A stretch of DNA of 49,628 bases from Escherichia phage JMPW1: the sequence record NC_041874.1, one strand, 5' to 3'. The notes under the pieces were generated by a model. It was given only the letters and a program-made list of their open reading frames with translations, was not told the DNA's origin and made no database searches. Below are positions 5,306 to 30,366 of this stretch, piece by piece; the first letter of the stretch is position 1; the number at the start of each line of letters is the position of its first letter. Made by a program: the position numbers and the translations under genes.

Positions 5306-5339
5306 GGGGAATTGGCTCTGAGCGGTTCCCCTTTCTTTT
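5306..5339 (+). terminator. intrinsic terminator fused to SD
   Basis: GGGGAA...TTCCCC stem then TTTCTTTTGGAG. Confidence 0.55.
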
Positions 5340-5665: not shown

Positions 5666-5692
5666 AACCTATCAAGGGGAATGCGCTATGAT
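5650..5692 (+). promoter_or_regulatory. palindrome-promoter cassette
   Basis: TAGCAcgaatTGCTA, 22 nt, TATGAT 5687-5692; hairpin GGGAAT/ATTCCC. Confidence 0.5.
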
Positions 5693-5722
5693 TCCCATGC
5701 ACCAACAAACGAGGAAGCACTC

Positions 5723-6169: not shown

Positions 6170-6212
6170 TAGCACGAATTGCTAAAACTTGCTCAAGGGC
6201 ATTTGATAGAAT
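6170..6212 (+). promoter_or_regulatory. palindrome-promoter cassette
   Basis: TAGCAcgaatTGCTA, 22 nt, TGaTAGAAT 6207-6212; hairpin AAGGGCAT/ATGCCCTT. Confidence 0.6.
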
Positions 6213-6252
6213 GCCCTTCGTTGAGTTAAGCAACCAATCAGAGGAATAAATC

Positions 6253-6864
6253 ATGGATAAAATTACCATTTGGGGCCAGACAATCAACCTGTTTCTCGGC
6301 ACGCGCCGCGTAGCAATCTTTGACTTTGATGGAACACTTAGCGATGGATCTGGTCGACTTCACCTGCTACCTACAAAGGATTTGCACTTAACTGAAAGCT
6401 GGTCCGAGTTTAACCGCGCGGCAATATTTGACAACCCTATCCAAAGCACGATCGATGTGATGAACTCTATGTATGCCGCTGGTCATCATGTGATCATTTT
6501 AACCGGGCGAAGTGATGAGGTGCGTTACGCATCTGAGTTGTGGCTTAAGCATCACGGCGCTCGATATGATTACCTGATTATGCGACCATACACCGATAAC
6601 CGGAAAGACACAGTAATGAAAGAAGAGGCGGTGCGCGCGATCGGCATTGATAACATTCTGGCGGCCTGGGATGACTCACCGCAAATTATTCCATTATTCC
6701 GCTCACTTGGAATAACCACTTACGCTGTAGTTGACTATGGCGATAAAGTTCACGATCATTTAAAATCTCACGGGGTAGATGAGGTTTGCAATCATGAACC
6801 ATCTGAGCCGCTACCGCCATTTGGTGAGAAAATTTGCATTAAGTGCAAGGAGTTATTGAAGTGA
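6253..6864 (+). CDS. HAD-family polynucleotide 3'-phosphatase-like protein (T4 Pnkp C-terminal-domain type)
   Basis: DFDGTL motif I, ILTGR motif, RKDTVMKEEAV and WDDSPQIIPLFRSLGI. These resemble T4 Pnkp phosphatase-domain blocks (RKDDVVKEE, IDDRTQVVEMW) as I remember them. Confidence 0.75.
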   Translation: MDKITIWGQTINLFLGTRRVAIFDFDGTLSDGSGRLHLLPTKDLHLTESWSEFNRAAIFDNPIQSTIDVMNSMYAAGHHVIILTGRSDEVRYASELWLKHHGARYDYLIMRPYTDNRKDTVMKEEAVRAIGIDNILAAWDDSPQIIPLFRSLGITTYAVVDYGDKVHDHLKSHGVDEVCNHEPSEPLPPFGEKICIKCKELLK

Positions 6865-6971
6865 ACCTATACGAATTTATTGCAGCACATCCGGTACTAA
6901 CAGTTATCATTCTGTTAATCATAAACTCCACCATCATCAATGTGGCGAAATTATTTTTAGGGAGATACTGA
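6861..6971 (+). CDS. possible 36-aa membrane peptide
   Basis: GTGA overlap with upstream stop; MNLYEFIAAHPVLTVIILLIINSTIINVAKLFLGRY; its stop lies 1 nt before the next ATG. Confidence 0.3.
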   Translation: MNLYEFIAAHPVLTVIILLIINSTIINVAKLFLGRY

Positions 6972-6972
6972 C

Positions 6973-7545
6973 ATGAAAACAGCTATCATTTTAAACGGTG
7001 CGCCTGGCGCGGGAAAAGACACTATAGGGTGCATCCTGGCTGACACTTACGATCATGTAGCGCTACGCAGCTTTAAAGCTCCAATGTTTGAGATTGCCCG
7101 AGCAATCCTGGGTGAGACTAATTTTGAGTATTTCATGTTCTTGTATGAGGACCGTCGCTATAAAGAAGAGCCAGCATCAATCCTGAACGGTAAAAGCCCG
7201 CGCCAGTTTATGATCTGGATTAGCGAGGAGGTTATCAAGCCGCAGTTCGGAAATCGCTTCTTCGGTATGCGAGCGGAAAGCAAGGTGAAAGAGTCTCACT
7301 CCCTTTCGGTATTTACTGACGGTGGATTCAAAGACGAAATCTTGCAGATGATTGAAGGTGAAATCCAGGTCAAGCTATGTCGAATCCATCGCAACGGTTG
7401 CAACTTTGACAACGACAGTCGCGACTACATCTATCTTGACGATATGATCGGGGTCAACGGTTATCAGGAATGTGACTTCTTCTCTGTCGAAGGTCATCCA
7501 GAAATTACCGCTCAGCACATAGCCGCCACGTTCATCAACAAATAG
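6973..7545 (+). CDS. P-loop kinase of the phage dNMP-kinase family
   Basis: Walker A GAPGAGKDT; LNGKSP and SPRQFMIWISEE blocks resemble T4 gp1 dNMP kinase (GKDT, LNGKSP). Confidence 0.7.
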   Translation: MKTAIILNGAPGAGKDTIGCILADTYDHVALRSFKAPMFEIARAILGETNFEYFMFLYEDRRYKEEPASILNGKSPRQFMIWISEEVIKPQFGNRFFGMRAESKVKESHSLSVFTDGGFKDEILQMIEGEIQVKLCRIHRNGCNFDNDSRDYIYLDDMIGVNGYQECDFFSVEGHPEITAQHIAATFINK

Positions 7546-7585
7546 CACGAATTGCTAAAACGTCGGTGGGGTGACTTGATATAGT
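7543..7585 (+). promoter_or_regulatory. palindrome-promoter cassette
   Basis: TAGCAcgaatTGCTA, 22 nt, TGaTATAGT 7580-7585; imperfect hairpin GGGGTGAC/GTTACCTC. Confidence 0.6.
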
Positions 7586-7617
7586 TACCTCATCGACAAC
7601 GAAGAGAGAAAATCGAA

Positions 7618-7827
7618 ATGATGGTATCAACTGATAAGTTTTTCACTTGCACTAAAACTTCTGAAGTATTCGAACTGGTTCATACTGATAATGGTGACTT
7701 CATGCATGACGGTTGCGACGTTTTCATTGAAGTGAAAGAAAGCGACTATGACTATGGGGTTTATTATAACCCGGCAGTGAACACTCAGTTTTTTACACCG
7801 ATCGAAGAGGAAGGAGAAGAAGCATGA
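7618..7827 (+). CDS. hypothetical acidic protein (69 aa)
   Basis: Follows cassette 7543-7585; acidic C-terminus EEEGEEA. Confidence 0.5.
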   Translation: MMVSTDKFFTCTKTSEVFELVHTDNGDFMHDGCDVFIEVKESDYDYGVYYNPAVNTQFFTPIEEEGEEA

Positions 7828-8168
7828 TCACGATTAACCTGTCAGATAAACAAGCGCGTGAAATCCTCGATACTATCGGCGAACAGCTTCACGTAAAAGT
7901 CGCTACCGCTGAGATTCTTAACCAGATCGAAAGACAGCTAACCCCGGTGTCGACGAATCAGGCTGAGTTCTCAATCTGGAAAAGCGAGCGAATCCTGCCA
8001 AATATCATCAAGGCATGGAAGCGCAAGAATAAAAAAGAAATCAATGTTGATGACTTATTTTCTGATGAATTAAGTCCTTCAAAGGTTGCTCAATATCAGT
8101 TGCGATACATGGAATCAGTTTGCAATCAGGTTTTAAATGTCAACTTTTCATTCGGGAGTGGTAAATAA
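7824..8168 (+). CDS. hypothetical protein (114 aa)
   Basis: ATGA overlap with upstream gene. Confidence 0.5.
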   Translation: MITINLSDKQAREILDTIGEQLHVKVATAEILNQIERQLTPVSTNQAEFSIWKSERILPNIIKAWKRKNKKEINVDDLFSDELSPSKVAQYQLRYMESVCNQVLNVNFSFGSGK

Positions 8169-8398
8169 TGTTTGGTTTAAGTGAAGCGGAATGGAACGTG
8201 GTAAAGCGCGCGGCGAAGGAATTGAATAAATTCGTTAGCGGAATGAAGAAAGAAGATCGCAAAAACGAAAAGATTATGATTGATGTGATCTCAACTCATC
8301 ACAAAAAGGTTGAGCTACTCATCGACCGCTACAAGTTTGTATGGACCGCCGGATATATTGCAGGGCGCGTAGGTAACAAAGAGGGTGATTACGAATAA
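8168..8398 (+). CDS. hypothetical protein (76 aa)
   Basis: TAATG overlap with upstream gene. Confidence 0.5.
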   Translation: MFGLSEAEWNVVKRAAKELNKFVSGMKKEDRKNEKIMIDVISTHHKKVELLIDRYKFVWTAGYIAGRVGNKEGDYE

Positions 8399-8601
8399 TG
8401 GCTAACTTACCGAAGAAAGGCGATCAGGTTCGATGTGTTACATCACGCAATGGTGATGCTTTCTCAGCGGGATGCTTGTATGACGTTGAAAAAGTAAGTA
8501 AAGCAAAGAGACTCGTATTTGTATACGGAGACGATGGAAATATTCATGAGATTGACTACCCGCAGGATATTACTAATGGCCAATTTGAAATTAATGATTG
8601 A
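8398..8601 (+). CDS. hypothetical small beta-rich protein (67 aa), mini-domain family member
   Basis: TAATG overlap; KKGDQVRCVTSRNGDAFSAGCLYDV...GDDGNIHEI resembles the MKFEC-type mini-domains. Confidence 0.5.
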   Translation: MANLPKKGDQVRCVTSRNGDAFSAGCLYDVEKVSKAKRLVFVYGDDGNIHEIDYPQDITNGQFEIND

Positions 8602-8627
8602 CCTGAATCTCTGAGCGGTGATAGTAT
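8598..8627 (+). promoter_or_regulatory. sigma70-type promoter candidate with extended -10
   Basis: TTGACC (8598-8603), 18-nt spacer, TGaTAGTAT (-10 at 8622-8627); heads a 140-nt hairpin-rich untranslated stretch. Confidence 0.4.
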
Positions 8628-8765
8628 TAATCCCGTAGACAGACGAGGCGCAAATAAGCGCAACGCGTGAGACGATTCTCACACTTCCAGCTAACAAGCT
8701 CGGTTGCATAGTGGTTAAGCAACGCCGCAGACCCGTAAGCGGCAACAATTCAAGAGGATTGCATA

Positions 8766-8927
8766 ATGCAAAAAACTAAAGACGAATCAGTCAAAATTGA
8801 AATTAAAGTAACTCGCAACGGTGAAACCACTAGTTATAAAAAACGATTAAATCCTGGCGAGGCTGTTATTGGTCGCATTGCTGGCGTTATGATTAAGGCG
8901 CAGGAAGATGAAGCGATTCAAAGTTAA
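8766..8927 (+). CDS. possible hypothetical protein (53 aa)
   Basis: AAGAGGATTGCATA-ATG; below the ORF-track length cut-off; MQKTKDESVKIEIKVTRNGETTSYKK... Confidence 0.35.
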   Translation: MQKTKDESVKIEIKVTRNGETTSYKKRLNPGEAVIGRIAGVMIKAQEDEAIQS

Positions 8928-9093
8928 ATTAATTATTCGAAAGATGGGAATGTTTTGCCAGTCGTGCAAGCAATCTTTCGAAACTGAATTATCAGCAACC
9001 AGTCAGGATGAAGCCATCACGAAAGCAAAAAAACTTTCCGGCGCTAACCTTGACACTCACAAAATAAATATTGAATTAATCAAGGAGATTTAA
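8908..9093 (+). CDS. hypothetical protein (61 aa; start uncertain)
   Basis: ORF track; contains CQSC; overlaps 8766-8927 by 20 nt. Confidence 0.4.
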   Translation: MKRFKVKLIIRKMGMFCQSCKQSFETELSATSQDEAITKAKKLSGANLDTHKINIELIKEI

Positions 9094-9094
9094 C

Positions 9095-9322
9095 ATGACA
9101 ATTTTTTTATTGATTATCGCTGGTGTCATTATTTTTGGTGCTGGTTTGTTTGCTGGCTTCGCACTTGTGGCGGCAGCAATTGCGATGGACGCGAAGGATA
9201 AAACTGGTGTATGGCTGACCTACTCGCCTAAGAAGGATCAATGGGAAATGACTGGCGACCTTGCTCACTGCTACTCTAAAGCTCAGACCCACCCTAAAGG
9301 CATTAAACGACGATTATCGTGA
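9095..9322 (+). CDS. membrane protein (75 aa)
   Basis: GGAG SD; N-terminal TM helix IFLLIIAGVIIFGAGLFAGFALVAAAIA; followed by terminator 9331-9354. Confidence 0.5.
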   Translation: MTIFLLIIAGVIIFGAGLFAGFALVAAAIAMDAKDKTGVWLTYSPKKDQWEMTGDLAHCYSKAQTHPKGIKRRLS

Positions 9323-9330: not shown

Positions 9331-9354
9331 AACCCGCTTCGGCGGGTTTTTTTA
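9331..9354 (+). terminator. intrinsic terminator (end of early region)
   Basis: ACCCGC ttcg GCGGGT followed by TTTTTTT. Confidence 0.8.
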
Positions 9355-9365
9355 TGCCTGCAATA

Positions 9366-9388
9366 TGGTAAAATAGCACTAAATGTTA
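9366..9388 (+). promoter_or_regulatory. extended -10 promoter overlapped by palindrome (terS)
   Basis: TGgTAAAAT (9366-9374); its last T is the first base of TAGCActaaaTGTTA (9374-9388), 18 nt before the terS ATG. Confidence 0.45.
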
Positions 9389-9406
9389 AACAAAGAGGAT
9401 GGATTT

Positions 9407-9970: not shown

Positions 9971-11539
9971 ATGATTCAATGGGAAGACCTTAACGCAACG
10001 CAGAAGTTAGCGATCAAGAAAATGAGCGAGGCCAATTTCGAAAAAATGATTCGGATCTGGTTCCAGCTTATGCAGGCGCAGCAGTTCCAGCCTAACTGGC
10101 ATCACCTTTACCTATGTCACGAAGTGGAGGAAATAATTGCAGGCCGACGCGGCAACACTATCTTTAACGTCACGCCTGGTTCCGGTAAAACTGAAGTGTT
10201 CTCAATTCACCTTCCGGTATACGCAATGCTCAAGTGTAAAAAGGTGCGAAACCTTAACGTGTCGTTTGCCGACAGCTTGGTTAAGCGTAACAGTAAGCGT
10301 GTCCGTGAGATTATCAGCAGCAACGAATTTCAAGAGCTATGGCCTTGCAAGTTCGGCACATCGAAAGACGAGGAGATGCAGGTTCTTAACGAAGATGGAA
10401 AGGTTTGGTTTGAGTTGATATCCGCAGCGGCTGGAGGTCGTATTACAGGTTCGCGTGGTGGCTACATGACGCCGGGATTCTCCGGTATGGTAATGCTCGA
10501 CGATATCGACAAGCCTGATGATATGTTCTCAAAGGTTAAGCGTGAGCGTACGCATATGCTACTGAAGAACACCATTCGCTCGCGCCGTATGCACAACGAA
10601 ACGCCAATCATCGCAATTCAGCAGCGACTACACGCACAGGATTCAACATGGTTCATGATGAATGGCGGGATGGGGATCGAGTTTGATCAAATCTCAATTC
10701 CGGCACTGGTGACTGAAGAATACGGAAAGACGCTTCCTGACTGGTTACAACCATACTTCGAGCGCGACGTTTTGTCGTCTGAGTATGTAGAATTGGATGG
10801 AGTTAAGCATTACTCATTCTGGCCCAGCAAGGAAAGCGTTCACGACCTGTTAGCTCTTCGAGAAGCGGACCAGTATACCTTTGACTCTCAGTATCAGCAG
10901 AAGCCGATCGCGCTTGGTGGCTCCGTGTTCAATTCGGAGTGGTGGACTTATTACGGCAGCAGCCTTGACGCTGATGAGCCGGATCCTGGTAAATATGATT
11001 ACCGTTTTATCACCGCTGATACCGCTCAGAAGACAGGTGAGCTAAACGACTACACAGTCTTTTGTTTATGGGGTAAGAAAAACGATAAGGTTTACTTTAT
11101 CGACGGCATTCGCGGAAAGTGGGAAGCGCCGGATATGGAGAAGCAATTTACCGCTTTCGTCAACCAAGCATGGAGGCACAATAAATCAATGGGGGTGCTT
11201 CGTAAAATCTATGTGGAAGATAAGGCGAGTGGTACGGGCTTAATCCAGAATCTAAGGAAAAAGACTCCGATATCCATCACTCCATTGCAGCGTAACAAAG
11301 ACAAAGTTACCCGAGCTATGGATGCCCAGCCAGTTATTAAAGCCGGGCGCGTGGTTCTGCCAGAAGAGCACCCCATGCTTGCGGAAATTATCGCGGAACA
11401 TAGCGCGTTCACTTACGATGACACGCATCCGCACGACGATATTGTCGATAACTTCATGGACGCTGCAAACATTGAACTACTGACAATTGACGATCCTATC
11501 GAGAGAATGAAGCGACTCGCCGGGATGGTTAAGCGGTAA
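9971..11539 (+). CDS. terL: terminase large subunit
   Basis: Walker A VTPGSGKTE, Walker B-like MVMLDDID, C-terminal RNaseH-like nuclease region (ITADTAQK...FCLWG...DD); GGGAG SD before ATG 9971. Confidence 0.9.
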   Translation: MIQWEDLNATQKLAIKKMSEANFEKMIRIWFQLMQAQQFQPNWHHLYLCHEVEEIIAGRRGNTIFNVTPGSGKTEVFSIHLPVYAMLKCKKVRNLNVSFADSLVKRNSKRVREIISSNEFQELWPCKFGTSKDEEMQVLNEDGKVWFELISAAAGGRITGSRGGYMTPGFSGMVMLDDIDKPDDMFSKVKRERTHMLLKNTIRSRRMHNETPIIAIQQRLHAQDSTWFMMNGGMGIEFDQISIPALVTEEYGKTLPDWLQPYFERDVLSSEYVELDGVKHYSFWPSKESVHDLLALREADQYTFDSQYQQKPIALGGSVFNSEWWTYYGSSLDADEPDPGKYDYRFITADTAQKTGELNDYTVFCLWGKKNDKVYFIDGIRGKWEAPDMEKQFTAFVNQAWRHNKSMGVLRKIYVEDKASGTGLIQNLRKKTPISITPLQRNKDKVTRAMDAQPVIKAGRVVLPEEHPMLAEIIAEHSAFTYDDTHPHDDIVDNFMDAANIELLTIDDPIERMKRLAGMVKR

Positions 11540-11555
11540 TAAATGAGATATAATC

Positions 11556-11583
11556 AGGGCTGTCAATTGACGGCCCTTTTTAT
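11556..11583 (+). terminator. terminator-like hairpin between terL and portal
   Basis: GGGCTGTCAATTGACGGCCC palindrome then TTTTTATTGGAGG. Confidence 0.55.
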
Positions 11584-11593
11584 TGGAGGAAAC

Positions 11594-12877
11594 ATGAAAA
11601 TTGTTAAGCATGATGGATATAACGATATTTTTAACGGCGGTGCAGACGGATCGCCTAAGCCATTCTTTATGTCTGATGCATCATATCACGTCGGTTCTTT
11701 CTACAACGACAACGCAACCGCGAAGCGAATTGTGGATGTTATCCCGGAAGAGATGGTGACGGCTGGTTTTAAAATGTCAGGCGTTAAGGATGAAAAAGAG
11801 TTCAAGTCTTTATGGGATAGCTACAAACTTGATTCAAGTCTGGTGGATCTTCTTTGTTGGGCGCGACTTTACGGTGGCGCGGCGATGGTGGCAATCATCA
11901 ACGACAACCGGATGTTAACCAGTCAGGCAAAGCCTGGAGCCAAACTTGAAGGCGTCCGAGTTTACGATCGATTTGCTATCACTGTTGAAAAGCGAGTCAC
12001 CAATGCAAGATCCCCTCGCTATGGTGAGCCTGAAATCTACAAGGTATCCCCTGGCGACAATATGCAGCCGTATCTGATTCATCACTCAAGAGTCTTTATT
12101 GCTGATGGTGAGCGAGTAACGCAACAGGCAAGAAAACAGAATCAAGGATGGGGAGCATCGGTATTGAACAAGTCACTGATTGATGCAATCTGTGACTATG
12201 ATTACTGTGAATCTCTGGCTACTCAGATCTTGAGACGTAAGCAACAGGCTGTATGGAAGGTCAAAGGTCTTGCCGAAATGTGTGATGATGATGATGCTCA
12301 GTACGCCGCGCGCCTGCGACTTGCTCAGGTTGATGATAACTCCGGCGTGGGCCGTGCGATCGGTATCGATGCTGAGACTGAGGAATATGACGTTCTCAAC
12401 TCTGATATCAGCGGAGTTCCTGAGTTCTTATCAAGCAAGATGGACCGCATCGTCTCCCTATCCGGGATCCATGAGATTATCATCAAGAATAAGAACGTAG
12501 GCGGCGTATCAGCGAGCCAAAACACAGCGCTTGAGACTTTCTATAAGCTAGTCGATCGCAAGCGCGAGGAAGATTACAGGCCGCTTCTTGAGTTCTTGTT
12601 GCCGTTCATTGTTGATGAGGAAGAGTGGTCGATCGAGTTTGAGCCTTTGTCTGTTCCGAGTAAGAAAGAGGAATCAGAGATCACGAAGAATAACGTTGAG
12701 TCAGTCACGAAGGCTATCACTGAGCAAATCATCGATCTGGAAGAAGCTCGCGACACGTTGCGATCCATTGCCCCTGAGTTCAAACTCAAGGATGGTAATA
12801 ACATCAACATTCGCGAACCGGAAGAAACAACCGAACCGGAGCCGGGATTAGGGGAGAAGTTAGAAGATGAAAATTAA
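11594..12877 (+). CDS. portal protein
   Basis: Position after terL, about 427 aa, acidic C-terminus; TTGGAGGAAAC-ATG. The 11543 start in the ORF track runs through the terminator hairpin. Confidence 0.85.
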   Translation: MKIVKHDGYNDIFNGGADGSPKPFFMSDASYHVGSFYNDNATAKRIVDVIPEEMVTAGFKMSGVKDEKEFKSLWDSYKLDSSLVDLLCWARLYGGAAMVAIINDNRMLTSQAKPGAKLEGVRVYDRFAITVEKRVTNARSPRYGEPEIYKVSPGDNMQPYLIHHSRVFIADGERVTQQARKQNQGWGASVLNKSLIDAICDYDYCESLATQILRRKQQAVWKVKGLAEMCDDDDAQYAARLRLAQVDDNSGVGRAIGIDAETEEYDVLNSDISGVPEFLSSKMDRIVSLSGIHEIIIKNKNVGGVSASQNTALETFYKLVDRKREEDYRPLLEFLLPFIVDEEEWSIEFEPLSVPSKKEESEITKNNVESVTKAITEQIIDLEEARDTLRSIAPEFKLKDGNNINIREPEETTEPEPGLGEKLEDEN

Positions 12878-13628
12878 TGGCGTTGCAACACAGTGGCGCT
12901 ATCCTGAAATGAGCGAGCGCGCAATGTCGCGCTCCCTACAGGATGTTGCAGCCAAACTAACTGAAAAAATGCGTGACGAATTAAAGCCGATGAAATTTGA
13001 CGCTACTGACGAAGAGATAGATCAGACAGAAAGGTCATTGCTTGATTACGTCGAATCACTCATCGCTCCGATTATTGGTTCTCTATCATCCGTTGCGCTC
13101 GCGATCTATAAATTCAACTCTAAGCAGTGGCTGCGCATCGCTCGCAATGCTGGAGGTAAGAAGAATCAAGCCGTGATGCTACTAGCCCTGATTGGTCCTA
13201 CCGCTGCCGAAAGCTGGTACTCAGGACAATATAATCTGTGGCGATCGCAGGTGACTACTTCTATCAGGAAATTTGCCGCCAACATGGTTACTGATTTCAC
13301 TGATAAACTTCGTGCGGCATCCGGTCAGGGTAAAAGCAAGGATTTTGTTGTTGAACTTGCTAAGGAGCGATTTGGTATTTACCGTAGCTGGGCCAAAAAT
13401 AGAGCGTCGGGAATTGTCGGAACCTGGAACAGTAGACTGATGCGGCAGCGCATAAAAGACGCTGGTGTATCTTACTATTTCTGGCGCGGGGTGATGGATT
13501 TACGCGAACGTGAAAAACATGTAAGATGGGAAGGTAAGCGCATAGCGGTAGATTCCGATCACGTATTCCCGGGTGAAGAATACAACTGCCGCTGTTGGGC
13601 TGTTCCAGACTTTTCTACAGGAGATTAA
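12867..13628 (+). CDS. head morphogenesis protein (SPP1 gp7 / Mu F-like)
   Basis: Follows portal; C-terminal HVFPGEEYNCRCWAVP matches the Mu-F-family NCRC signature. Confidence 0.8.
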   Translation: MKINGVATQWRYPEMSERAMSRSLQDVAAKLTEKMRDELKPMKFDATDEEIDQTERSLLDYVESLIAPIIGSLSSVALAIYKFNSKQWLRIARNAGGKKNQAVMLLALIGPTAAESWYSGQYNLWRSQVTTSIRKFAANMVTDFTDKLRAASGQGKSKDFVVELAKERFGIYRSWAKNRASGIVGTWNSRLMRQRIKDAGVSYYFWRGVMDLREREKHVRWEGKRIAVDSDHVFPGEEYNCRCWAVPDFSTGD

Positions 13629-13630
13629 AA

Positions 13631-14743
13631 ATGAAGGCAAAGCAAAGATTCGATTCAGTAAAAATCAAGGCTCACTTTGATGATAACGGTTTTTTAGTTG
13701 ACCGCCCAATCGTGGCGCGAATCGGCGCTCAGGTTTACAAAACGCCGCACGGCGATCGAGTTGAGTTCCGTCCGGCGTCCGAAGTTTTCAAGCAAGATTC
13801 CTTGCAAAGTTTTGCAGGCAAGCCGATAACAGTCGGTCACGTAACGGTGACACCCCAAAATGCTAAGGACGTTGTTGTCGGATCGTGTGCTGGCGCTGGT
13901 ATTGCTTCAGGGGTTGGCGTTGAAGTTCCTTTGAGTATTTACAGCGACTACGCGATCAGCAAAGCTAAAGCGAAGGAGGCCGGGGAATTATCTGTAGGGT
14001 ATACGTCGGTAGATATTGATAAGCCCGGCTGGGGTTCAAATGAGACTGGAGAATATATCTTCGAAGAGGATATGAAACAGGACGAAGCGCCGCCTGAAGG
14101 TTGGGTGAAATTCGACGCGGTACAAACTAATATCAAGGTCAACCATATTGCCCTAGTTTTTAAAGGTCGTGCGGGAATTGCTAAATTAAATCTTGATGCC
14201 GAACAGGAGTTCCCGTATGATAATAACGTTCAATTAACTAACGAGGACAAGCAAATGAAAAAAATTAAGATCGACTCAGTTGATGTGGAAGTAACCGAAG
14301 ACGTTGCGAACCATATCGAAAAATTAACCGCGCAGATTGCCACCATTCAGGGGAAAGCTGATGGCTTCGAAGCTGAGCGCGATGCGCTGAAGGTTAAGGT
14401 TGACTCTCTGCCGGAACTTGTGAAGGCCGAGGTAGAGAAGCAAAAAGCCGATGCCGCCGCACGCGCAGAAGTTACCGCAGTAGCAGAAACCGCAGGCGTC
14501 AAACATGATGGTCTTGATATCAAAGACGTCAAGATTGCCGTAGTTAAAGCCATGCTTGATAAAGATGTTAGTGAAAAATCAGACGCATATATCGACGCTA
14601 TGTTTGATGTTGCTAAAGATTCTGATATCATGGCTATTCAGCGTAAAGCAGTAAAAGGCGACTCTATCGAAGGCGGTAAGCCGGAAGAGAAAAACGACGC
14701 CGCGCCTGTTACGCCAAATTCACGTTTAAGCAAAGTAATGTAA
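13631..14743 (+). CDS. head scaffolding / prohead core protein (DUF2213-like)
   Basis: Position between Mu-F-like and capsid genes; coiled-coil A/E/K-rich C-terminal half; GGAG SD before ATG 13631. Confidence 0.6.
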   Translation: MKAKQRFDSVKIKAHFDDNGFLVDRPIVARIGAQVYKTPHGDRVEFRPASEVFKQDSLQSFAGKPITVGHVTVTPQNAKDVVVGSCAGAGIASGVGVEVPLSIYSDYAISKAKAKEAGELSVGYTSVDIDKPGWGSNETGEYIFEEDMKQDEAPPEGWVKFDAVQTNIKVNHIALVFKGRAGIAKLNLDAEQEFPYDNNVQLTNEDKQMKKIKIDSVDVEVTEDVANHIEKLTAQIATIQGKADGFEAERDALKVKVDSLPELVKAEVEKQKADAAARAEVTAVAETAGVKHDGLDIKDVKIAVVKAMLDKDVSEKSDAYIDAMFDVAKDSDIMAIQRKAVKGDSIEGGKPEEKNDAAPVTPNSRLSKVM

Positions 14744-14754
14744 GGGGAAATATC

Positions 14755-15231
14755 ATGGCACAAATTAATGCATCTTATCAGCGAGATATGGCGATTGCGC
14801 TTCCGGGTATGGTTGCGGATACTTCAAAGTACAATATTGACGGCGCTTGTGTCGTTAATGAAGGTGATGTTCTTGTTGGCGCTGCCGTACAAGTTGTTCA
14901 AGCTCAGGCGGTTGATGGTCATAAGTTGGTTAAGGCTCTTACTACCGGAACCACTCCTTACGGCGTGGCAATCCGATCTCACTGGCAGACTGTTAACGCT
15001 CAAAATCAGATGATTTACGAAGATGGCGGCGCTATCAACGTGATGACTTCAGGCCGAGTATGGATGCTTTCCAAATCCACCGAAGCACCAACTTTCGGCT
15101 CTGCCGTTAAACTTGATGTTGATGGTCAGGAAAAATCTGATGGCACGATCGAAACAACCTGGACCTACGCTGGCGGTTGGACTAAATACAAAGATATTCA
15201 GCTTGTTGAGGTTCAGTTGCATCAACTGTAA
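14755..15231 (+). CDS. capsid decoration / cement protein paralog 1
   Basis: Upstream of major capsid; N-terminus ALPGMVADTSKYNIDGACVV is paralogous to the next gene. Confidence 0.55.
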   Translation: MAQINASYQRDMAIALPGMVADTSKYNIDGACVVNEGDVLVGAAVQVVQAQAVDGHKLVKALTTGTTPYGVAIRSHWQTVNAQNQMIYEDGGAINVMTSGRVWMLSKSTEAPTFGSAVKLDVDGQEKSDGTIETTWTYAGGWTKYKDIQLVEVQLHQL

Positions 15232-15245
15232 TTAGCGTTTAATAT

Positions 15246-15280
15246 GGGGACTATCTTTTTTTTGGATAGTCCTTTTTTTA
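15246..15280 (+). terminator. terminator-like hairpin fused to SD
   Basis: GGACTATC ... GATAGTCC then TTTTTTTATGGAG. Confidence 0.6.
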
Positions 15281-15293
15281 TGGAGAAATCATT

Positions 15294-16061
15294 ATGGCTT
15301 ACGAAAATTTGTTCTTGCGCCCCGCGTGTCCGGGAAATATTTCTGATACTTCAACCTACAATATTGATGGAGCTTGTGTGGCTCAAGGTGACATTGGGTT
15401 CGGCTCAGCGGTTCAGGTTGTAGGCATCGTTGACGGTGTAAAAGTTGTGGCGGCGCTTCCTGATGGTGGAACTCCTTACGGTATCGCTTTCCGTTCCCAA
15501 TATGAACACCTGAGCGGTAAAATCCTTGACGGTGAAGTGTGCAACGTCGTTTCTCACGGTCGCGTATGGACTCTTACTTCTCTTGGTGAGGCTCCCAGCT
15601 TGTTCTCAAAGTTACAGTTTGGGTCTGGTGGAGTTGTTACTGGTGGATCTGGTTCCGCAGGTTGGACATTTGCGGGTGGCTTTGTTAAGCATGAAGATGG
15701 CTACATCATTGAGGTTCAGGTGAAACAAAATGCTTTCATCGCTCCACCGCCACCGCCCCCTGTCGTTCTTGTTGAATCTGCTACAATCGCCACTGACAAG
15801 GAAAGCCCTCAACCAAACAATGTTACGATCCAGTGTGTAGCTAATGCTCTTCCGGATAATGCAACCGATAAGACTGGTAAATGGTCAATCGACGCTACCA
15901 ATATCGCCACTGTCGATCCGGACTCAGGTCTTGTAACTCCTGTTGGTGGAGAGGTAGTCGGTGATTTCAATATTACCTGGACGGCTAACGATGCCAGCAA
16001 GACGACGGCAACTATTGCTTATCGCGTAGAAGCAGTGCCAACGCCAGAGGTTGATGCATAA
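15294..16061 (+). CDS. capsid decoration paralog 2 with poly-Pro linker and Ig-like C-terminal domain
   Basis: ACPGNISDTSTYNIDGACVA paralogous to 14755 gene; APPPPPPVV linker; Big_2-like C-terminus (NVTIQCVANALPDNATDKTGKWS). Confidence 0.6.
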   Translation: MAYENLFLRPACPGNISDTSTYNIDGACVAQGDIGFGSAVQVVGIVDGVKVVAALPDGGTPYGIAFRSQYEHLSGKILDGEVCNVVSHGRVWTLTSLGEAPSLFSKLQFGSGGVVTGGSGSAGWTFAGGFVKHEDGYIIEVQVKQNAFIAPPPPPPVVLVESATIATDKESPQPNNVTIQCVANALPDNATDKTGKWSIDATNIATVDPDSGLVTPVGGEVVGDFNITWTANDASKTTATIAYRVEAVPTPEVDA

Positions 16062-16073
16062 CATAAAAACACT

Positions 16074-16101
16074 TTGACGCTTTAACAAAAAGTGCTATTA
16101 T
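16074..16101 (+). promoter_or_regulatory. promoter candidate with palindrome in the spacer (capsid gene)
   Basis: TTGACG (16074-16079), 16 nt, TATTAT (16096-16101). TAACAaaaagTGCTA (16083-16097) fills the spacer and -10. A terminator-like hairpin follows, so function is uncertain. Confidence 0.3.
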
Positions 16102-16103
16102 TG

Positions 16104-16132
16104 AAGCCGTGAACATAATCACGGCTTTTTTA
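16104..16132 (+). terminator. terminator-like hairpin upstream of capsid gene
   Basis: GCCGTG aacataat CACGGC then TTTTTTATT. Confidence 0.6.
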
Positions 16133-16152
16133 TTAACTACGGAGAAGTAATC

Positions 16153-17112
16153 ATGACTACTAAAAAATTTGATGAAGCAGATAAAAGCAATGTTGAAATG
16201 TATCTGATCCAGGCTGGCGTAAAACAGGATGCAGCCGCAACGATGGGTATCTGGACCGCTCAGGAACTACACCGCATCAAGAGTCAGTCCTATGAAGAAG
16301 ACTACCCGGTCGGCTCCGCTCTACGAGTATTCCCGGTTACAACCGAACTCTCTCCGACCGACAAGACGTTTGAGTACATGACCTTTGATAAGGTTGGTAC
16401 TGCTCAGATTATCGCTGACTATACCGATGACCTGCCTCTGGTTGATGCACTTGGTACTTCTGAATTTGGTAAGGTGTTCCGTTTGGGTAACGCGTATCTG
16501 ATCTCAATCGACGAAATCAAAGCAGGTCAGGCAACTGGTCGCCCACTGTCAACCCGTAAGGCGAGCGCGTGCCAGTTGGCGCATGATCAGCTTGTTAACC
16601 GCCTGGTGTTCAAAGGTTCCGCACCGCACAAGATTGTGTCCGTGTTTAACCATCCGAACATCACTAAAATTACCTCCGGTAAGTGGATTGATGCATCTAC
16701 TATGAAGCCGGAAACTGCGGAAGCTGAGCTAACTCAAGCGATCGAAACCATCGAGACGATTACTCGGGGTCAGCACCGCGCAACCAACATCCTGATCCCG
16801 CCTTCCATGCGTAAGGTTTTGGCGATTCGTATGCCTGAGACAACCATGTCTTATCTGGACTATTTTAAGTCTCAGAACTCCGGTATCGAAATCGACTCTA
16901 TCGCAGAGCTTGAGGATATTGACGGCGCAGGCACCAAAGGCGTACTGGTGTACGAAAAGAATCCGATGAACATGTCCATCGAGATCCCGGAAGCATTTAA
17001 TATGCTGCCAGCACAACCGAAAGACTTGCACTTTAAAGTGCCTTGCACTTCTAAGTGTACTGGTCTTACAATTTATCGCCCGATGACTATTGTCTTAATC
17101 ACTGGCGTGTAA
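16153..17112 (+). CDS. major capsid protein
   Basis: 319 aa, strong SD, position; sequence resembles T1-family major capsid (DUF2184-type) from memory. Confidence 0.85.
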   Translation: MTTKKFDEADKSNVEMYLIQAGVKQDAAATMGIWTAQELHRIKSQSYEEDYPVGSALRVFPVTTELSPTDKTFEYMTFDKVGTAQIIADYTDDLPLVDALGTSEFGKVFRLGNAYLISIDEIKAGQATGRPLSTRKASACQLAHDQLVNRLVFKGSAPHKIVSVFNHPNITKITSGKWIDASTMKPETAEAELTQAIETIETITRGQHRATNILIPPSMRKVLAIRMPETTMSYLDYFKSQNSGIEIDSIAELEDIDGAGTKGVLVYEKNPMNMSIEIPEAFNMLPAQPKDLHFKVPCTSKCTGLTIYRPMTIVLITGV

Positions 17113-17119
17113 TATTATA

Positions 17120-17147
17120 GGGGCTAACTTAGTTAGTCCCTTTTTTA
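17120..17147 (+). terminator. terminator after capsid gene, fused to SD
   Basis: GGGGCTAAC tta GTTAGTCCC then TTTTTTATTGGAG. Confidence 0.65.
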
Positions 17148-17161
17148 TTGGAGAAATCAAA

Positions 17162-17449
17162 ATGGCTAAAGAAAAAACTGTTGTTATCGTAAACGTTGGT
17201 GTAGCTCTTCAGATGTTCCGTCTTGAAGATGGTTCCTTTGCTAAAGTTCTTCCAGATGAAGAGGTCACGCTTCCGGCGTCCGTTCTTGATTTGCCTGGCC
17301 TGCGTTGCTTAATTGCTCGCGAAGAAATCGAAGTTAAAGACGACAGTGCAACCAACCGCAAAATCCGCGCTGAAATGGCAAAGATCACTAAGCCAGATCC
17401 GTGGGATAGCAAAAGCGTTAAAGAGCTTGAGGACGGCGGCGAATATTAA
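17162..17449 (+). CDS. hypothetical head-associated protein (95 aa)
   Basis: Terminator-SD junction TTTTTTATTGGAGAAATCAAA-ATG; directly after capsid gene. Confidence 0.5.
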   Translation: MAKEKTVVIVNVGVALQMFRLEDGSFAKVLPDEEVTLPASVLDLPGLRCLIAREEIEVKDDSATNRKIRAEMAKITKPDPWDSKSVKELEDGGEY

Positions 17450-17456
17450 TCATCAA

Positions 17457-17481
17457 GGCGCTCATGTAGCGCCTTTTTTTA
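17457..17481 (+). terminator. terminator-like hairpin fused to SD
   Basis: GGCGCT catgt AGCGCC then TTTTTTTATGGGGG. Confidence 0.65.
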
Positions 17482-17492
17482 TGGGGGTAATT

Positions 17493-17903
17493 ATGAATCA
17501 AGAAACTTTAATTGCAGCTGTTGAGCAAATGCGAAAGCTGGTTCCGGCACTTCGTAAGGTTCCAGACGAAACGCTTTATGCGTGGGTAGAAATGGCTGAG
17601 CTTTTTGTATGCCAGAAGACCTTTAAAGACGCATACGTCAAAGCGATCGCTCTTTATGCATTACACCTTGCTTTCCTTGATGGGGCGCTAAAAGGTGAAG
17701 ATGAGGATCTGGAATCGTACTCACGCCGCGTTACGTCATTCTCACTGAGCGGTGAATTTAGCCAGACTTTCGGAGAGGTTACGAAGAACCAGTCAGGGAA
17801 CATGATGCTTTCTACGCCGTGGGGTAAGATGTTCGAACAGCTTAAAGCGAGACGCCGTGGTAGATTCGCATTAATGACAGGACTCCGTGGAGGATGCCAC
17901 TAA
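17493..17903 (+). CDS. head-tail connector (adaptor) protein
   Basis: GGGGG SD then ATG 17493 just after terminator 17457-17481. Position and size fit a gp6-type adaptor. The 17313 start in the ORF track crosses the terminator. Confidence 0.55.
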   Translation: MNQETLIAAVEQMRKLVPALRKVPDETLYAWVEMAELFVCQKTFKDAYVKAIALYALHLAFLDGALKGEDEDLESYSRRVTSFSLSGEFSQTFGEVTKNQSGNMMLSTPWGKMFEQLKARRRGRFALMTGLRGGCH

Positions 17904-18274
17904 TGAACTACTCACAGATTGAAAGAATGGCTCGCAAAGGCGTGGCTTTCTTCACCGATCCGTCAAGACCTATGAACCTGATAAAACAAGGTGAATACGG
18001 ATATGATGAAAACGGATTCGAGATCCCACCGATGGAACAGGTTATTCCAATATCCGGCGCGACGAGAAGACCGAACGCGCGTGAGATTGACGGGGAAACT
18101 ATCCGCGCCTCAGATATTTTGGGGATCTTCAATAATGATCATGAAATAAACGAAGGTGACTATATAGAGATTGATGGCATTCGTCATGTTGTCGTTGATG
18201 CTCGCCCGGTTCAGGCGTCACTGGAACCAGTTGCCTATCGTCCAGTGTTGCGGAGGGTATCAGTCGGTGGCTAA
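17903..18274 (+). CDS. head closure / head-tail joining protein
   Basis: TAATG overlap; GTGGAGG SD 9 nt upstream; position. Confidence 0.5.
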   Translation: MNYSQIERMARKGVAFFTDPSRPMNLIKQGEYGYDENGFEIPPMEQVIPISGATRRPNAREIDGETIRASDILGIFNNDHEINEGDYIEIDGIRHVVVDARPVQASLEPVAYRPVLRRVSVGG

Positions 18275-19768: not shown

Positions 19769-19780
19769 ATACCATCCATA

Positions 19781-19806
19781 GGGGGCTTGCGCCCCCTTAT
19801 TCATTT
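19781..19806 (+). terminator. hairpin after major tail gene (weak T-run)
   Basis: GGGGGC ttgc GCCCCC then TTATTCATTT. Confidence 0.45.
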
Positions 19807-19844
19807 CTGTAAAATCATCCTATCAACTCTATTCACTTAACTTT

Positions 19845-19859
19845 TAACAAAAAGTGCTA
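19845..19859. promoter_or_regulatory. palindrome TAACAaaaagTGCTA upstream of tail chaperone gene
   Basis: Consensus flanks are in minus orientation, 22 nt from TGaTAGGAT on the minus strand. On the plus strand it abuts the leader CAACCAATCAGGAG. Confidence 0.4.
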
Positions 19860-19881
19860 TCAACCAATCAGGAGAAACATC

Positions 19882-20199: not shown

Positions 20200-20516
20200 A
20201 AAGGGCGGTTTATCTGTTATATCAGAAACCGCCGACAGAAGAGCAATTACGATCGGTTGGCCTCAGTCTTTCTGACTATGAAGACGAGGAACCGGAAACG
20301 ATAATCGGCGATACTGAAATGGTGAAGGCGTGGAATGTTTTTACGTCAATGCTCACTCAGTGGAGAAGTTCAGGCGCTGGAGCTTATGGTCTTGACTATA
20401 ATGTTTTGCCTATGTTGTTCAAAATCTATAAAATAGAAGATGAAGAACTGGCATTGCAGGACGTTAGAATCATGGAAGCGAAAGCGCTTGAAATGGTTGC
20501 TAAGCAAAACAACTAA
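19882..20516 (+). CDS. tail assembly chaperone frameshift product (gpGT analogue, -1 shift at 20190-20196)
   Basis: The -1 frame is open from the slip site through the ORF-track ORF 20319-20516, which ends just before the tape measure gene. Confidence 0.6.
20190..20196 (+). other. -1 programmed ribosomal frameshift slippery heptamer A_AAA_AAC
   Basis: In phase (GCA AAA AAC TAA) one codon before the chaperone stop; the -1 frame stays open to 20516. Confidence 0.65.
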
Positions 20517-20538
20517 GCCGCCGTTTGGCGGTTTTTTC
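20517..20538 (+). terminator. terminator-like hairpin before tape measure
   Basis: GCCGCC gttt GGCGG then TTTTTTCG. Confidence 0.55.
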
Positions 20539-20554
20539 GTATATAGGGGGTTAT

Positions 20555-23784: not shown

Positions 23785-23873
23785 CACCTCATGACAAAAG
23801 CCCGCCTTGCGCGGGTGGCGCTCAGGTTTACAGATTTCACGGAGAGAATATCCAGTACACTCCAGAAGAAATA

Positions 23874-25810: not shown

Positions 25811-25836
25811 AACCCGCCTTGCGCGGGTTTTTTTTC
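25811..25836 (+). terminator. intrinsic terminator after gpI-like gene
   Basis: ACCCGC cttgc GCGGGT then TTTTTTTT; its 16-mer CCCGCCTTGCGCGGGT recurs at 23801-23816. Confidence 0.75.
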
Positions 25837-25883
25837 GCCTGTATAATGAGTCCACCGATAAATAGCACAAAAAGGTAAACATC

Positions 25884-28800: not shown

Positions 28801-29303
28801 GCGCGAGGCTTGGGAATAATGAGGCAGCACTTTCTCAAAAACTTGATTCGTGGAGCAATGCAGATTCGACTGGTGCAATGTACGGCGTCAAGCTCGGTCT
28901 GAAGTATAACGGCCAAGAATACAGTGCAGGCATGGCTATGTCTCTGATTGGTTCCGGAGCTGCGGTTAAGGCGCAGATTTTGTTTGAGGCATCACGATTT
29001 GCCATCATGAATGGAATGAATGGTCAGACTCAGTACCCATTCGTTGTTGAGAATGGCCAGGTTATTTTAAGTAGCGCGATTATCAAGAACGGATTCATCA
29101 CTAACGCAATGATTGGAAACTTCATCCAGTCGAATAACTATGTATTTAACCAGTCCGGATGGAGGCTTGACAAGGGTGGAACATTCGAAAACTACGGAAG
29201 TGACGGTGAGGGTGCAATGAAGCAAACTAATACCACAATATCTGTTAGGGATGCGAGTGGTCGCCTGAGGGTTCAGATTGGCAGGTTGACTGGTTCATGG
29301 TAA
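25884..29303 (+). CDS. host-specificity / tail tip protein (lambda gpJ-like)
   Basis: 1139 aa; WTNNPAWVLYDL block typical of J; FN3-like domain (VSWDKVPYAVFYDVQWRKDNGNWQ); C-terminal coiled coil. Confidence 0.9.
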   Translation: MIQKVISGSKGGSPKPHNPVEMEDNLISINKIKILLAVSDGEIDETFSLKQLMFNSVPVQNEDGSFNFEGVKAEFRPGTQTQEYIKGMEDSSSEVTVNREVTTDNPYTISVTNKTLSAIRIKMFMPRGVRIESNGDKNGVRVEYEVQQAVDGGSFETVLTDVIEGKTMSGYDRSRRVNLPSFNNQVIFRVVRKTPDSNDSNVVDAIQVKSYAEVIDAKFRYPLTGLLFVEFDSKMFPNQLPTISIRKRWKIVNVPSNYDPESRTYNGNWDGTFKKAWTNNPAWVLYDLMINQRYGLDQKELGISVDKWALYEAAQYCDQMVPDGKGGTEPRYLCDVIIQSQTDAYKVIRDICSIFRGMSFWNGESISVIIDRPREPAYIFTNDNVVNGDFSYTFASEKSMYTTCNVMFDDEQNMYQQDVEPVFDREATLRFGNNVTSITAIGCTRRSEANRRGRWILKTNLRSTTVNFATGLEGMIPTIGDVVAIADNFWSSNLTMNLSGRLLEVSGSQIFLPFRVDARAGDFIIVNKPDGKPVKRTISSVSADGKTIEINIGFGFPVKPNTVFAIDRTDIALQQYVVTKIDKGDDDEEFTYKITAVEYDPNKYDEIDYGVNIDDRPTSIVEPDQIPRPENVQVSSESRIVQGMSVETMIVSWDKVPYAVFYDVQWRKDNGNWQNVPQTANKEVYVEGIYAGNYQVRVRSVAGSGTTSGWSNVVAATLTGKQGEPGGPINLTATDDVVFGIRTKWGFSDGSGDTAYTELQQSPDGTVDNASLLSLIPYPQHEYYHSPMPGGNIVWYRVRTVDRIGNVSQWTDFVRGMASTNVDDIIGEISVDIENSPGYEWLVDNATDNAAQNAANAEAAIENALANDKDAIYMKKENGKRKAEYTKSLKLIADETQARVTAIEQLKASFGDQISASNSELREVIATETGALSREIDQLRAEIGDDIQASLTDIREAIANETEARTQADLSLSARLGNNEAALSQKLDSWSNADSTGAMYGVKLGLKYNGQEYSAGMAMSLIGSGAAVKAQILFEASRFAIMNGMNGQTQYPFVVENGQVILSSAIIKNGFITNAMIGNFIQSNNYVFNQSGWRLDKGGTFENYGSDGEGAMKQTNTTISVRDASGRLRVQIGRLTGSW

Positions 29304-29310
29304 TATCAAG

Positions 29311-29336
29311 GGCATCGAGAGATGCCATTTTCTTTT
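29311..29336 (+). terminator. terminator-like hairpin after J, fused to SD
   Basis: GGCATC gaga GATGCC then ATTTTCTTTTGGAGG. Confidence 0.55.
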
Positions 29337-29348
29337 GGAGGATTTATT

Positions 29349-29654: not shown

Positions 29655-30343
29655 TGTCATACGGTGCTTTTATAGATGTAAACGGAAACCCATTCATAAC
29701 CCCGTTATCCACGCCATTCGCCTTATATGAGAGAGGGGAAATTCAATCAGTAAATGTTAGTGGTTCACAGGTTGCGGAGAGATATGTTCGGATACCTACA
29801 GGTGTTCCGGTTATAGCTTTTTGCAAAACAACAAACACGCAGCAGGGGACCGCGCTTTCAGCCTTTACTTTCAGAAGCGGACCCAATGTTGGAACTGTTT
29901 ATATAAGGGGGACAAATCCAGCAAACCAATCATACACGCTAACATACTACATATTTGCCATATTTGAGCAGTCACTACCGAGCTGGGGTATGGCAATATG
30001 GGATTCGTCAGGAAAGCTAGTGCTGACAAATGAGACAAAAGTCCTTAGTGATTTGGTTACAATCGGCACTCCTGGATACGCTGGAGGTGGATTAAACATA
30101 GACACAACACTCAGCGGAAGCTACGCAGTTGTTCCAACTATACTTGGCAACTATCAAATTGTTATTGGCAGGCTGCCAACTGGGCAACCCATAATAGGAA
30201 ACTCAACAGCAGGCAGCTCATGCAGGTACAACGGGAGCGCAACTAGGATAAATGCAGCAGCAACCACAGCGGCAGGTCAGATAATGAACACCACGAATAA
30301 TGGAAATATCATAACAGCAATCAACACAGCAGCGTATGACTAA
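29654..30343 (+). CDS. post-J tail-associated protein with two copies of the same domain (229 aa)
   Basis: TAATG overlap; MSYGAFIDVNGNP and SWGMAIWDSSGKLVL repeats. Confidence 0.55.
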   Translation: MSYGAFIDVNGNPFITPLSTPFALYERGEIQSVNVSGSQVAERYVRIPTGVPVIAFCKTTNTQQGTALSAFTFRSGPNVGTVYIRGTNPANQSYTLTYYIFAIFEQSLPSWGMAIWDSSGKLVLTNETKVLSDLVTIGTPGYAGGGLNIDTTLSGSYAVVPTILGNYQIVIGRLPTGQPIIGNSTAGSSCRYNGSATRINAAATTAAGQIMNTTNNGNIITAINTAAYD

Positions 30344-30366
30344 GCCCCTTGCGGGGCTTTTCTTTT
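30343..30366 (+). terminator. intrinsic terminator (end of late operon)
   Basis: GCCCC ttgc GGGGC then TTTTCTTTT. Confidence 0.7.

Follow-up and report, generated by a model that had tools for sequence, protein, structure and literature searches.

Conserved terminator-like hairpins between the late genes of a T1-type phage, and the promoter-like elements and stop codons beside them

Introduction

In the lambda Q and N systems, a long block of co-directional genes contains several intrinsic terminators, as does the late region considered here. Phage T7 has a leaky terminator, T-phi, after its major capsid gene 10, and this lowers expression of the low-copy genes downstream. For phage T1, the description of the late region as a set of 'transcriptons' reportedly comes from Roberts, Martin and Kropinski in 2004 (PMID 14972552), a source that we know through its summary in PMC11447400. 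Transcriptons are modules of a promoter, one or more genes and a terminator, and have terminators as their bounds. We analysed the genome of Escherichia phage JMPW1 (NC_041874.1), a stretch of 49,628 nucleotides that we call the window, and in it the chain of hairpins with U-tracts that stand between the late genes.

By sequence, the window is essentially an entire T1-type genome: over 11000-18000 it shares 100% identity with Escherichia phages phi2013 and IME167, and 97% with phage T1 (Tunavirus, Drexlerviridae). Its open reading frames (ORFs) and the T1 annotation give a plus-strand layout with a rightward early block at ~150-9320, followed by packaging, head and tail genes at 9407-30343. 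The T1 record (GenBank AY216660.1) carries rho-independent terminators at the orthologues of 5306, 9331, 15246, 16103, 17119, 17455, 20515, 25811, 29311 and 30342, so that annotated T1 terminators map onto ten sites in the window. Most of them directly abut the next annotated ribosome-binding site, and a promoter is annotated immediately 5′ of the capsid terminator. Terminators were annotated independently at the same junctions in phage SA30RD and in the more distant Citrobacter phage Stevie, again against ribosome-binding sites and together with the capsid promoter. The SA30RD record, whose terminators were called with TransTermHP and WebGeSTer, agrees with T1 in having both a promoter and a terminator at the capsid junction and a terminator before the second decoration gene (decoration 2). 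The hairpins are thus already known, through annotation in T1, SA30RD and Stevie and through the published transcripton layout. Our literature searches found no map of transcripts or RNA 3′ ends for any T1-like phage.

Results

The original prediction listed eight hairpins, and all are present within 1-2 nt of where it placed them (Table 1). Their stems have 6-11 bp with 4-6 GC pairs and close loops of 3-8 nt, the folding energies, each hairpin folded alone, run from -9.0 to -15.6 kcal/mol, 5-7 of the 8 nt 3′ of every stem are T, and the next ATG lies 16-24 nt from the stem end. These canonical features bear out the view that the late gene block contains terminator-like hairpins set tightly against the ribosome-binding site that follows. 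Equivalent hairpins that the earlier list lacked lie at 9331-9348, 19780-19797, 25811-25829 and 30342-30359; the last of these is at the end of the rightward late block and faces a convergent cor-like gene. The T-run had also been said to merge into a 12-mer consensus, and this stands only in part. The U-tract does run into the Shine-Dalgarno sequence, but ATTGGAGAAATC is matched by only four of the eight sites, and as a repeat family it is not significant (10 matches at up to 2 mismatches, 6.1 expected). What the sites have in common is a U-tract, then (A)T(T), then GGAG or GGGG, with 9-10 additional nt separating the T-run from the Shine-Dalgarno at the capsid and tape-measure hairpins.

Hairpins of this kind might arise as a compositional by-product of AT-rich intergenic DNA and of the U-rich leaders of ribosome-binding sites. 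The modest excess given by a looser scanner (26 sites against 18, and 27 against 17) and the non-significant 12-mer would suit such an origin. A strict scan, in which the stem had to have 7 or more bp, 4 or more of them GC pairs, the loop 3-8 nt and the tail 5 or more T in 7, returned 22 sites, 16 on the plus strand and 6 on the minus strand. Forty dinucleotide shuffles gave 2.4 sites on average and never more than 6. Every one of the 16 sites on the plus strand is intergenic, with stop-to-hairpin distances of -2 to 41 nt. This excess, the strand specificity and intergenic placement of the sites, and the persistence of hairpins with changed stems at the same junctions in relatives of 57-90% capsid identity make a chance origin extremely improbable. 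Signals acting at the DNA level, for packaging or replication, were set aside as well, the T-run being strand-specific and the sites following stop codons on the coding strand. So were RNase III processing sites as in T7, for which stems of 6-11 bp are too short. An Rfam scan at gathering thresholds for known RNA elements matched no family.

Conservation was followed in 62 related Drexlerviridae loci whose capsid proteins are 57-100% identical. Starting from the orthologues of 23 late genes, we examined the 100 nt on the 5′ side of each for a hairpin of -8 kcal/mol or below with a T-rich tail, counting distinct sequences only and clade by clade. In the two closer clades the portal hairpin is kept in 9/10 and 25/26 sequences. 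For the other junctions the counts by clade are 7/7 and 31/32 at orf95, 11/11 and 14/31 at the capsid, 8/9 and 11/29 at decoration 2, 12/12, 23/29 and 6/6 at the connector, 10/11, 19/23 and 4/4 at the tape measure, 11/12, 28/30 and 6/6 at terS, and 8/9, 24/28 and 6/6 at chaperone G. The hairpin between the two decoration genes is absent from ~18 of the 29 distinct decoration-2 junction sequences of the middle clade. At control junctions between overlapping genes, the same search found no hairpin in the relatives for morph, deco1 and tipL, and at most 2 hairpins among ~50 distinct sequences for conn2 and orf43. The remaining junctions gave sporadic weak matches (~-9 kcal/mol) well 5′ of the start codon. 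Stems vary from clade to clade while their arms stay complementary, as in the orf95 arms AGGGGCTAAC/GTTAGTCCCT, GGGGAATCC/GGGTTCCCC, GGGAGCCTC/GAGGTTCCC and AAGCCTCTC/GAGAGGCTT. At terS and chaperone G the U-tract is kept even though the Shine-Dalgarno lies 50-85 nt further on, and it is therefore part of the hairpin and not of the ribosome-binding site. The hairpins are real, non-random and conserved terminator-like signals between late genes.

The original prediction held that the downstream genes have no promoters of their own and that transcription must pass seven or more terminators. Comparison with the relatives, which we anchored on the hairpin base, supports neither statement. Eight of ten junctions (terS, portal, decoration 2, capsid, orf95, chaperone G, J and post-J) have a conserved -10 or -35/-10 element next to the hairpin or overlapping it, and none was found beside the connector or tape-measure hairpin. 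Since only these two hairpins are without such an element, at most one or two read-throughs would be needed per transcription unit. A TAnnnT hexamer ends 0-2 nt 5′ of the hairpin in 84-100% of distinct sequences at the portal, decoration 2, capsid and orf95 (at the portal 0-1 nt 5′, in 97%). At other offsets its frequency is mostly near zero, and at the same 0-2 nt offsets it is found in 0-5% of sequences at terS, connector, chaperone G and tape measure. TTG at a spacing of 16-17 nt accompanies it in 84% of capsid and 97% of orf95 sequences, including relatives whose flanking or intervening sequence differs, and TTG at the -35 spacing is also kept at decoration 2, judged by eye. Between the terS hairpin and its Shine-Dalgarno, a downstream -10 matching at least 5 of 6 positions is present in all 40 distinct relatives, 31 of them with the extended TG. 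The corresponding -10 of chaperone G is found in 23 of 35 distinct sequences, 22 of these with TTG in the loop. At post-J, TTGGCA-17-TAATAT is probably an abutting -10 site of the same sort. These elements are, we infer, candidate promoters of short late units. A -10 in the hairpin loop at the portal and capsid was considered too, but AT-rich loops match easily and the offset is not fixed.

By their neighbouring elements the hairpins fall into two kinds, those overlapping a promoter-like element and those with none. In the first kind, the -10 hexamer either ends 0-4 nt 5′ of the hairpin base (portal, decoration 2, capsid, orf95 and probably post-J) or lies downstream, with the hairpin loop or U-tract providing its -35 and spacer (terS, chaperone G and J). 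The second kind comprises the promoterless connector and tape-measure hairpins, which lie 5 and -2 nt from the upstream stop.

The elements 5′ of the hairpins can also be viewed as processing sites. An AU-rich single-stranded stretch beside a stem-loop fits an RNase E site, and such sequence (TATAAT, TAATAT, TATTAT) is found directly 5′ of four hairpins. The hairpins might then shield RNA 3′ ends, or 5′ ends left by RNase E cuts, so that segments of a long late transcript differ in half-life and termination is of minor importance. The conserved stable stems, and the position of the genes for the most abundant proteins (decoration, capsid and tail tube) immediately 5′ of a hairpin, agree with this. 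TAnnnT with TTG 16-17 nt away, in 84-97% of capsid and orf95 sequences, is however a property of promoters and not of RNase E sites, and nearly all relatives keep the U-tract, which a stabiliser does not need, even where there is no Shine-Dalgarno. We therefore consider a mainly post-transcriptional role unlikely, while 3′ end stabilisation as a second role of the hairpins is compatible with termination. Start sites predicted within the 5′ arm argue against a role as 5′-terminal stabilisers.

Processive antitermination is exemplified by lambda Q or N, Xp10 p7 and P23-45 gp39. With such a mechanism, the terminators would keep transcription of the early block or leftward arm out of the late genes until an early phage factor modified the host polymerase to read through all of them. 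The many terminators in series on one strand, directly 3′ of a co-oriented early block, would suit this, most early proteins have no known function, and to our knowledge the known small antiterminators are not recognisable by homology beyond their own groups. The early protein encoded at 4376-4663 (plus strand, 95 aa) has a DUF3850 domain (PF12961, E = 2.6e-16), and its best PHROG, phrog_986, has the label 'RNA-binding protein'; no other early protein hints at RNA binding. As the original prediction had said, no antitermination mechanism is identifiable among the annotated genes. Neither PHROG scans of 30 early and right-arm proteins nor Pfam scans of six chosen as the most suggestive turned up Q, N, Nun or any further antiterminator family, the Rfam scan offered no antiterminator RNA, and the curated, HHpred-based T1 annotation names no antiterminator; a novel factor could still fit these results. 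The scans of the 30 proteins gave only a C2/Cro-like regulator (36341-36793), the DUF3850 protein and a DUF3987 protein (helicase-like by its PHROG family, its T1 orthologue annotated as a RavA-like AAA ATPase), to which the T1 annotation adds two helix-turn-helix proteins (43920-44327 and 45977-46393 in the window). The conserved promoter-like elements at eight of ten junctions also remove the need for an antiterminator, and if the hairpins were fully overridden late in infection, the tight placement of stop codons at the promoterless ones would be unexplained. A dedicated antitermination system is in our judgement improbable.

Stop codons lie very close to many of the hairpins, at -2, 4, 5, 6, 7, 7 and 8 nt for those at 20515, 25811, 17455, 17119, 29311, 5306 and 9331, respectively. 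In these seven, the stop is within the ~10-15 nt of the hairpin base at which a ribosome may mask it. The family medians are 6 nt at terS, 5 at the connector (range 4-9), 5 at chaperone G and -2 at the tape measure. At lambda tR2, termination falls from ~90% to below 10% when a stop codon is placed 5 bp from the terminator (Li et al. 2015, PMC4824070), reaches its maximum only with the stop more than 30 bp away, and is regained in the absence of upstream translation (PMC4824070). Taken with the stop placement here, this result would explain read-through at exactly the two promoterless sites. By analogy, a ribosome finishing the upstream gene would be a sufficient and established cause of read-through at both the connector and the tape measure. 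The tape-measure hairpin overlaps, by its first two bases, the stop codon (20514-20516) of the -1 frameshift product of the chaperone gene, and this overlap is conserved among 32 distinct relatives, in which the median of -2 nt was obtained. Such an arrangement hints that frameshifted ribosomes could be what allows polymerase to read through into the tape-measure gene.

A set of repeats touches several of the same junctions. The repeat ATAGCACnnnTTGnTAAAA, which we call ATAGCAC, has 26 copies at up to 3 mismatches against 1.8 expected (window 103-49543), and is known from PMC11447400 as a 21-nt direct repeat of TLS and T1. Its core TAGCA-N5-TGCTA is a partial palindrome, of which a TGTTA variant would keep pairing only as RNA, through G-U. 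In the early blocks the repeat is co-oriented with the genes, and a TATAGT-like -10 follows ~19 nt further 3′. The late copies lie over the predicted core promoter, or over the bases predicted to be transcribed first, in the terS, capsid, chaperone G and J units; the terS copy covers the predicted transcription start, and the inverted copy at the capsid forms part of the sigma70-like promoter element. More distant relatives have a copy directly 5′ of the portal -10. This placement in the late region looks like that of an operator, through which a phage regulator could control the timing of late transcription.

The early repeat units also contain an inverted repeat with a -10-like hexamer inside it. 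Its arms vary between copies yet remain complementary (for example GGGGTA..TATAGT TACCCC, AAGGCCA..TATAGTGGCCTT and AAGGGCA..TAGAATGCCCTT; -8 to -25 kcal/mol), and no U-tract follows them. We found no description of this early -10-in-inverted-repeat structure.

Some further features lie outside the series. The hairpins 33369-33393, 43786-43806 and 25811-25829 have an A-run and a T-run as flanks and reach a terminator score on either strand; two of the three stand at convergent gene junctions. A hairpin at 23781-23815 (GCCCGCCTTGCGCGGGT), after the tail-tip gene M, has a T-run on the minus strand and none on the plus strand; the T1 record nonetheless labels a plus-strand terminator there, and a weak ATAGCAC copy overlaps the stop codon of M just 5′ of it. 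The two decoration genes share a 56-nt stretch of 79% identity (14797-14852 and 15324-15379), consistent with paralogy.

Table 1. Hairpin sites of the early and late blocks, with their predicted neighbouring elements, and the repeats of the window
Feature	Coordinates	Strand	Hairpin	Energy (kcal/mol)	Sequence 3′ of stem	Neighbouring elements
Early site	5306..5339	+	5306-5331	-13.2	TTTCTTTTGGAG	U-tract; 7 nt past stop of ORF 4660-5298; small ORF start at 5352, 20 nt further on; T1 orthologue is an annotated terminator abutting a ribosome-binding site
terS site	9331..9372	+	9331-9348		U-tract	8 nt past stop of ORF 9095-9322; extended -10 TGGTAAAAT at 9364-9372, 3′ of hairpin; terminator annotated in T1
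Portal site	11549..11593	+	11556-11577	-15.6	TTTTATTGGAGG	TATAAT 11549-11554, 1 nt, hairpin, TTTTATT, GGAGG; ATG 11594
Decoration-2 site	15217..15293	+	15246-15274	-14.1	TTTTTATGGAGA	TTGCAT-17-TAATAT (-10 15240-15245) abutting hairpin; U-tract, GGAG; ATG 15294
Capsid site	16074..16152	+	16103-16128	-14.5	TTTATTAACTACGGAG	TTGACG-16-TGcTATTAT 16074-16101 directly before hairpin; U-tract, GGAG; ATG 16153
orf95 site	17090..17161	+	17119-17141	-13.3	TTTTTATTGGAG	TTGTCT-17-TATTAT 17090-17118 abutting hairpin; 6 nt past capsid stop; then TTTTTTATTGGAG; ATG 17162
Connector site	17455..17492	+	17455-17475	-11.4	TTTTTATGGGGG	5 nt past orf95 stop; then TTTTTTTATGGGGG; ATG 17493
Chaperone G site	19780..19881	+	19780-19797		U-tract degenerate in this clade	11 nt past major tail protein stop; loop TTGCGC (-35-like), 17 nt, TAAAAT 19810-19815; ATG 19882
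Tape-measure site	20515..20554	+	20515-20534	-11.8	TTTCGTATATAGGGGG	then TTTTTTCGTATATAGGGGG; ATG 20555; terminator annotated in T1
J site	25811..25883	+	25811-25829			4 nt past tipI stop; A and T runs on flanks; loop TTGCGC, 17 nt, TATAAT 25842-25847; ATG 25884; terminator annotated in T1
Post-J site	29278..29348	+	29311-29326	-9.0 (weakest, 6 bp)	ATTTTCTTTTGGAGG	TTGGCA-17-TAATAT 29278-29306 (TG before -10); 7 nt past J stop; ATG 29349; terminator annotated in T1
Late-block end	30342..30365	+	30342-30359		U-tract	Overlaps stop of ORF 29654-30343; terminator annotated in T1
ATAGCACnnnTTGnTAAAA copies, examples	1055-1073, 1794-1812, 5649-5667, 7542-7560	+
ATAGCACnnnTTGnTAAAA copies, examples	45955-45973, 48551-48569	-
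Late ATAGCAC copies	9373-9391, 25862-25880 (weak)	+
Late ATAGCAC copies	16080-16098, 19842-19860	-
Early inverted repeats	1076-1105, 1815-1843, 2836-2864, 4123-4150, 6187-6216, 7561-7592	+
Early-type inverted repeats	~46420-46450, 48050-48082	-

Discussion

We think it probable that the hairpins act on host RNA polymerase as ordinary Rho-independent terminators and divide the late region into short transcription units. Each hairpin would partly terminate the incoming polymerase. In units with an abutting -10, transcription would start ~7 nt past the -10, inside the 5′ arm, and the unit's own RNA would therefore lack the hairpin and escape the terminator. The promoterless terminators would be read through when the ribosome finishing the upstream gene covers the 5′ arm, making the connector and tape-measure hairpins translation-dependent attenuators that leak in proportion to upstream translation. 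The U-tract would lie against the Shine-Dalgarno because the genome is compact, and it may also act as a U-rich translation enhancer. The net effect would be graded expression, with decoration, capsid and tail-tube proteins made at high levels and portal, connectors and tape measure at low levels. In line with such a gradation, the genes for decoration, capsid and tail tube do lie directly 5′ of a terminator, and capsid and decoration 2 would form single-gene units.

The apparent paradox of how transcription gets past so many terminators disappears with the adjacent conserved promoter-like elements and the stop-codon placement, and for the same reasons no dedicated antiterminator would be required. 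Among the three options that the original prediction had put forward, leaky terminators that would help to set structural-protein stoichiometry fare best.

Several points weigh against termination into short units. Termination, transcription start sites and read-through are all inferred from sequence, and the measurements of masking come from a plasmid reporter carrying a single terminator and not from infected cells. This AT-rich genome has many chance sigma70-like matches (at 9/12, 41 were found with 33 expected), which is why our promoter calls rest on conservation at fixed offsets and not on score. The -35 of the portal is poor (TGGTTA), and in the more distant clade the phage-specific ATAGCAC repeat stands in its place, so that a phage factor may be needed at some promoters. 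Basal stem positions show 1-7 pair types, mostly 2-5, in base-anchored counts, but these were made on hairpins chosen by folding and describe stem diversity without being an independent test of structure. A covariation test of the orf95 hairpins (MAFFT and RNAalifold) put 4 basal pairs in register with zero compensatory counts, the alignment having failed because the inner stems are not homologous between clades.

A more elaborate reading is possible, and we offer it tentatively and with considerable doubt: the junctions may be composite terminator-promoter modules of two fixed designs across the Drexlerviridae, together with translation-gated promoterless hairpins, a frameshift-coupled tape measure and an ATAGCAC operator. 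In the first design the -10 would abut the hairpin base, and the module's own transcripts, starting in the 5′ arm, would be immune to the terminator; in the second the hairpin loop would serve as the -35 hexamer and the U-tract as the spacer. At the tape measure, only a -1 frameshifted ribosome from the chaperone gene would reach the stop that overlaps the hairpin, which would couple transcription of the tape-measure gene to the frequency of frameshifting. The ATAGCAC repeat over several promoters would serve as an operator through which a phage regulator sets their timing.

As originally posed, the finding is a rediscovery of annotated terminators in a classical phage, and its weight is limited. 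What the analysis adds are modest refinements, namely two overlap designs, putative translation-gated promoterless sites and a possible coupling of the tape measure to frameshifting. The family-wide comparison gives precise predictions of start sites, termination sites and two translation-dependent read-through points, and the compact terminator-promoter designs are possible parts for phage engineering.

The T1 transcriptons have the same hairpins by orthology, at 97% DNA identity, and the same capsid promoter is annotated before its terminator. The T1 record differs in that the portal and after-tail-tube hairpins are not annotated. For the sigma70-type promoter expected in each transcripton, the conserved -10 or -35/-10 elements at eight junctions are candidates, but none occurs at the connector or tape measure, and chance matches are frequent. 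The two overlap geometries and the stop placement of the promoterless hairpins are the subject of no statement in the T1 sources covered, among which Roberts et al. 2004 itself does not figure. The lambda late operon has a single promoter, whereas here there are conserved internal promoter-like elements, and no Q/N homologue or RNA family was detected. The likeness to T7 T-phi lies in a partial intrinsic terminator directly after the most abundant structural gene, with an efficiency that is here a prediction. T7, however, has its own RNA polymerase and one main terminator, whereas this phage would use the host polymerase at a dozen sites, most with promoter-like elements. Stabilisers of the ompA leader type share a stable hairpin shortly 5′ of the Shine-Dalgarno, but theirs is at the extreme 5′ end, whereas here transcription is predicted to start within the hairpin or past it, and the stem runs on into a U-tract. 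The masked lambda tR2 (PMC4824070) and the pyrBI attenuator are alike in having a stop within ~10 nt of the hairpin base, a position from which a terminating ribosome can keep the hairpin from folding; here the stop is -2 to 8 nt away at the early, terS, orf95, connector, tape-measure, J and post-J hairpins, and, unlike at tR2, the ribosome that masks the tape-measure terminator would be one that has shifted into the -1 frame.

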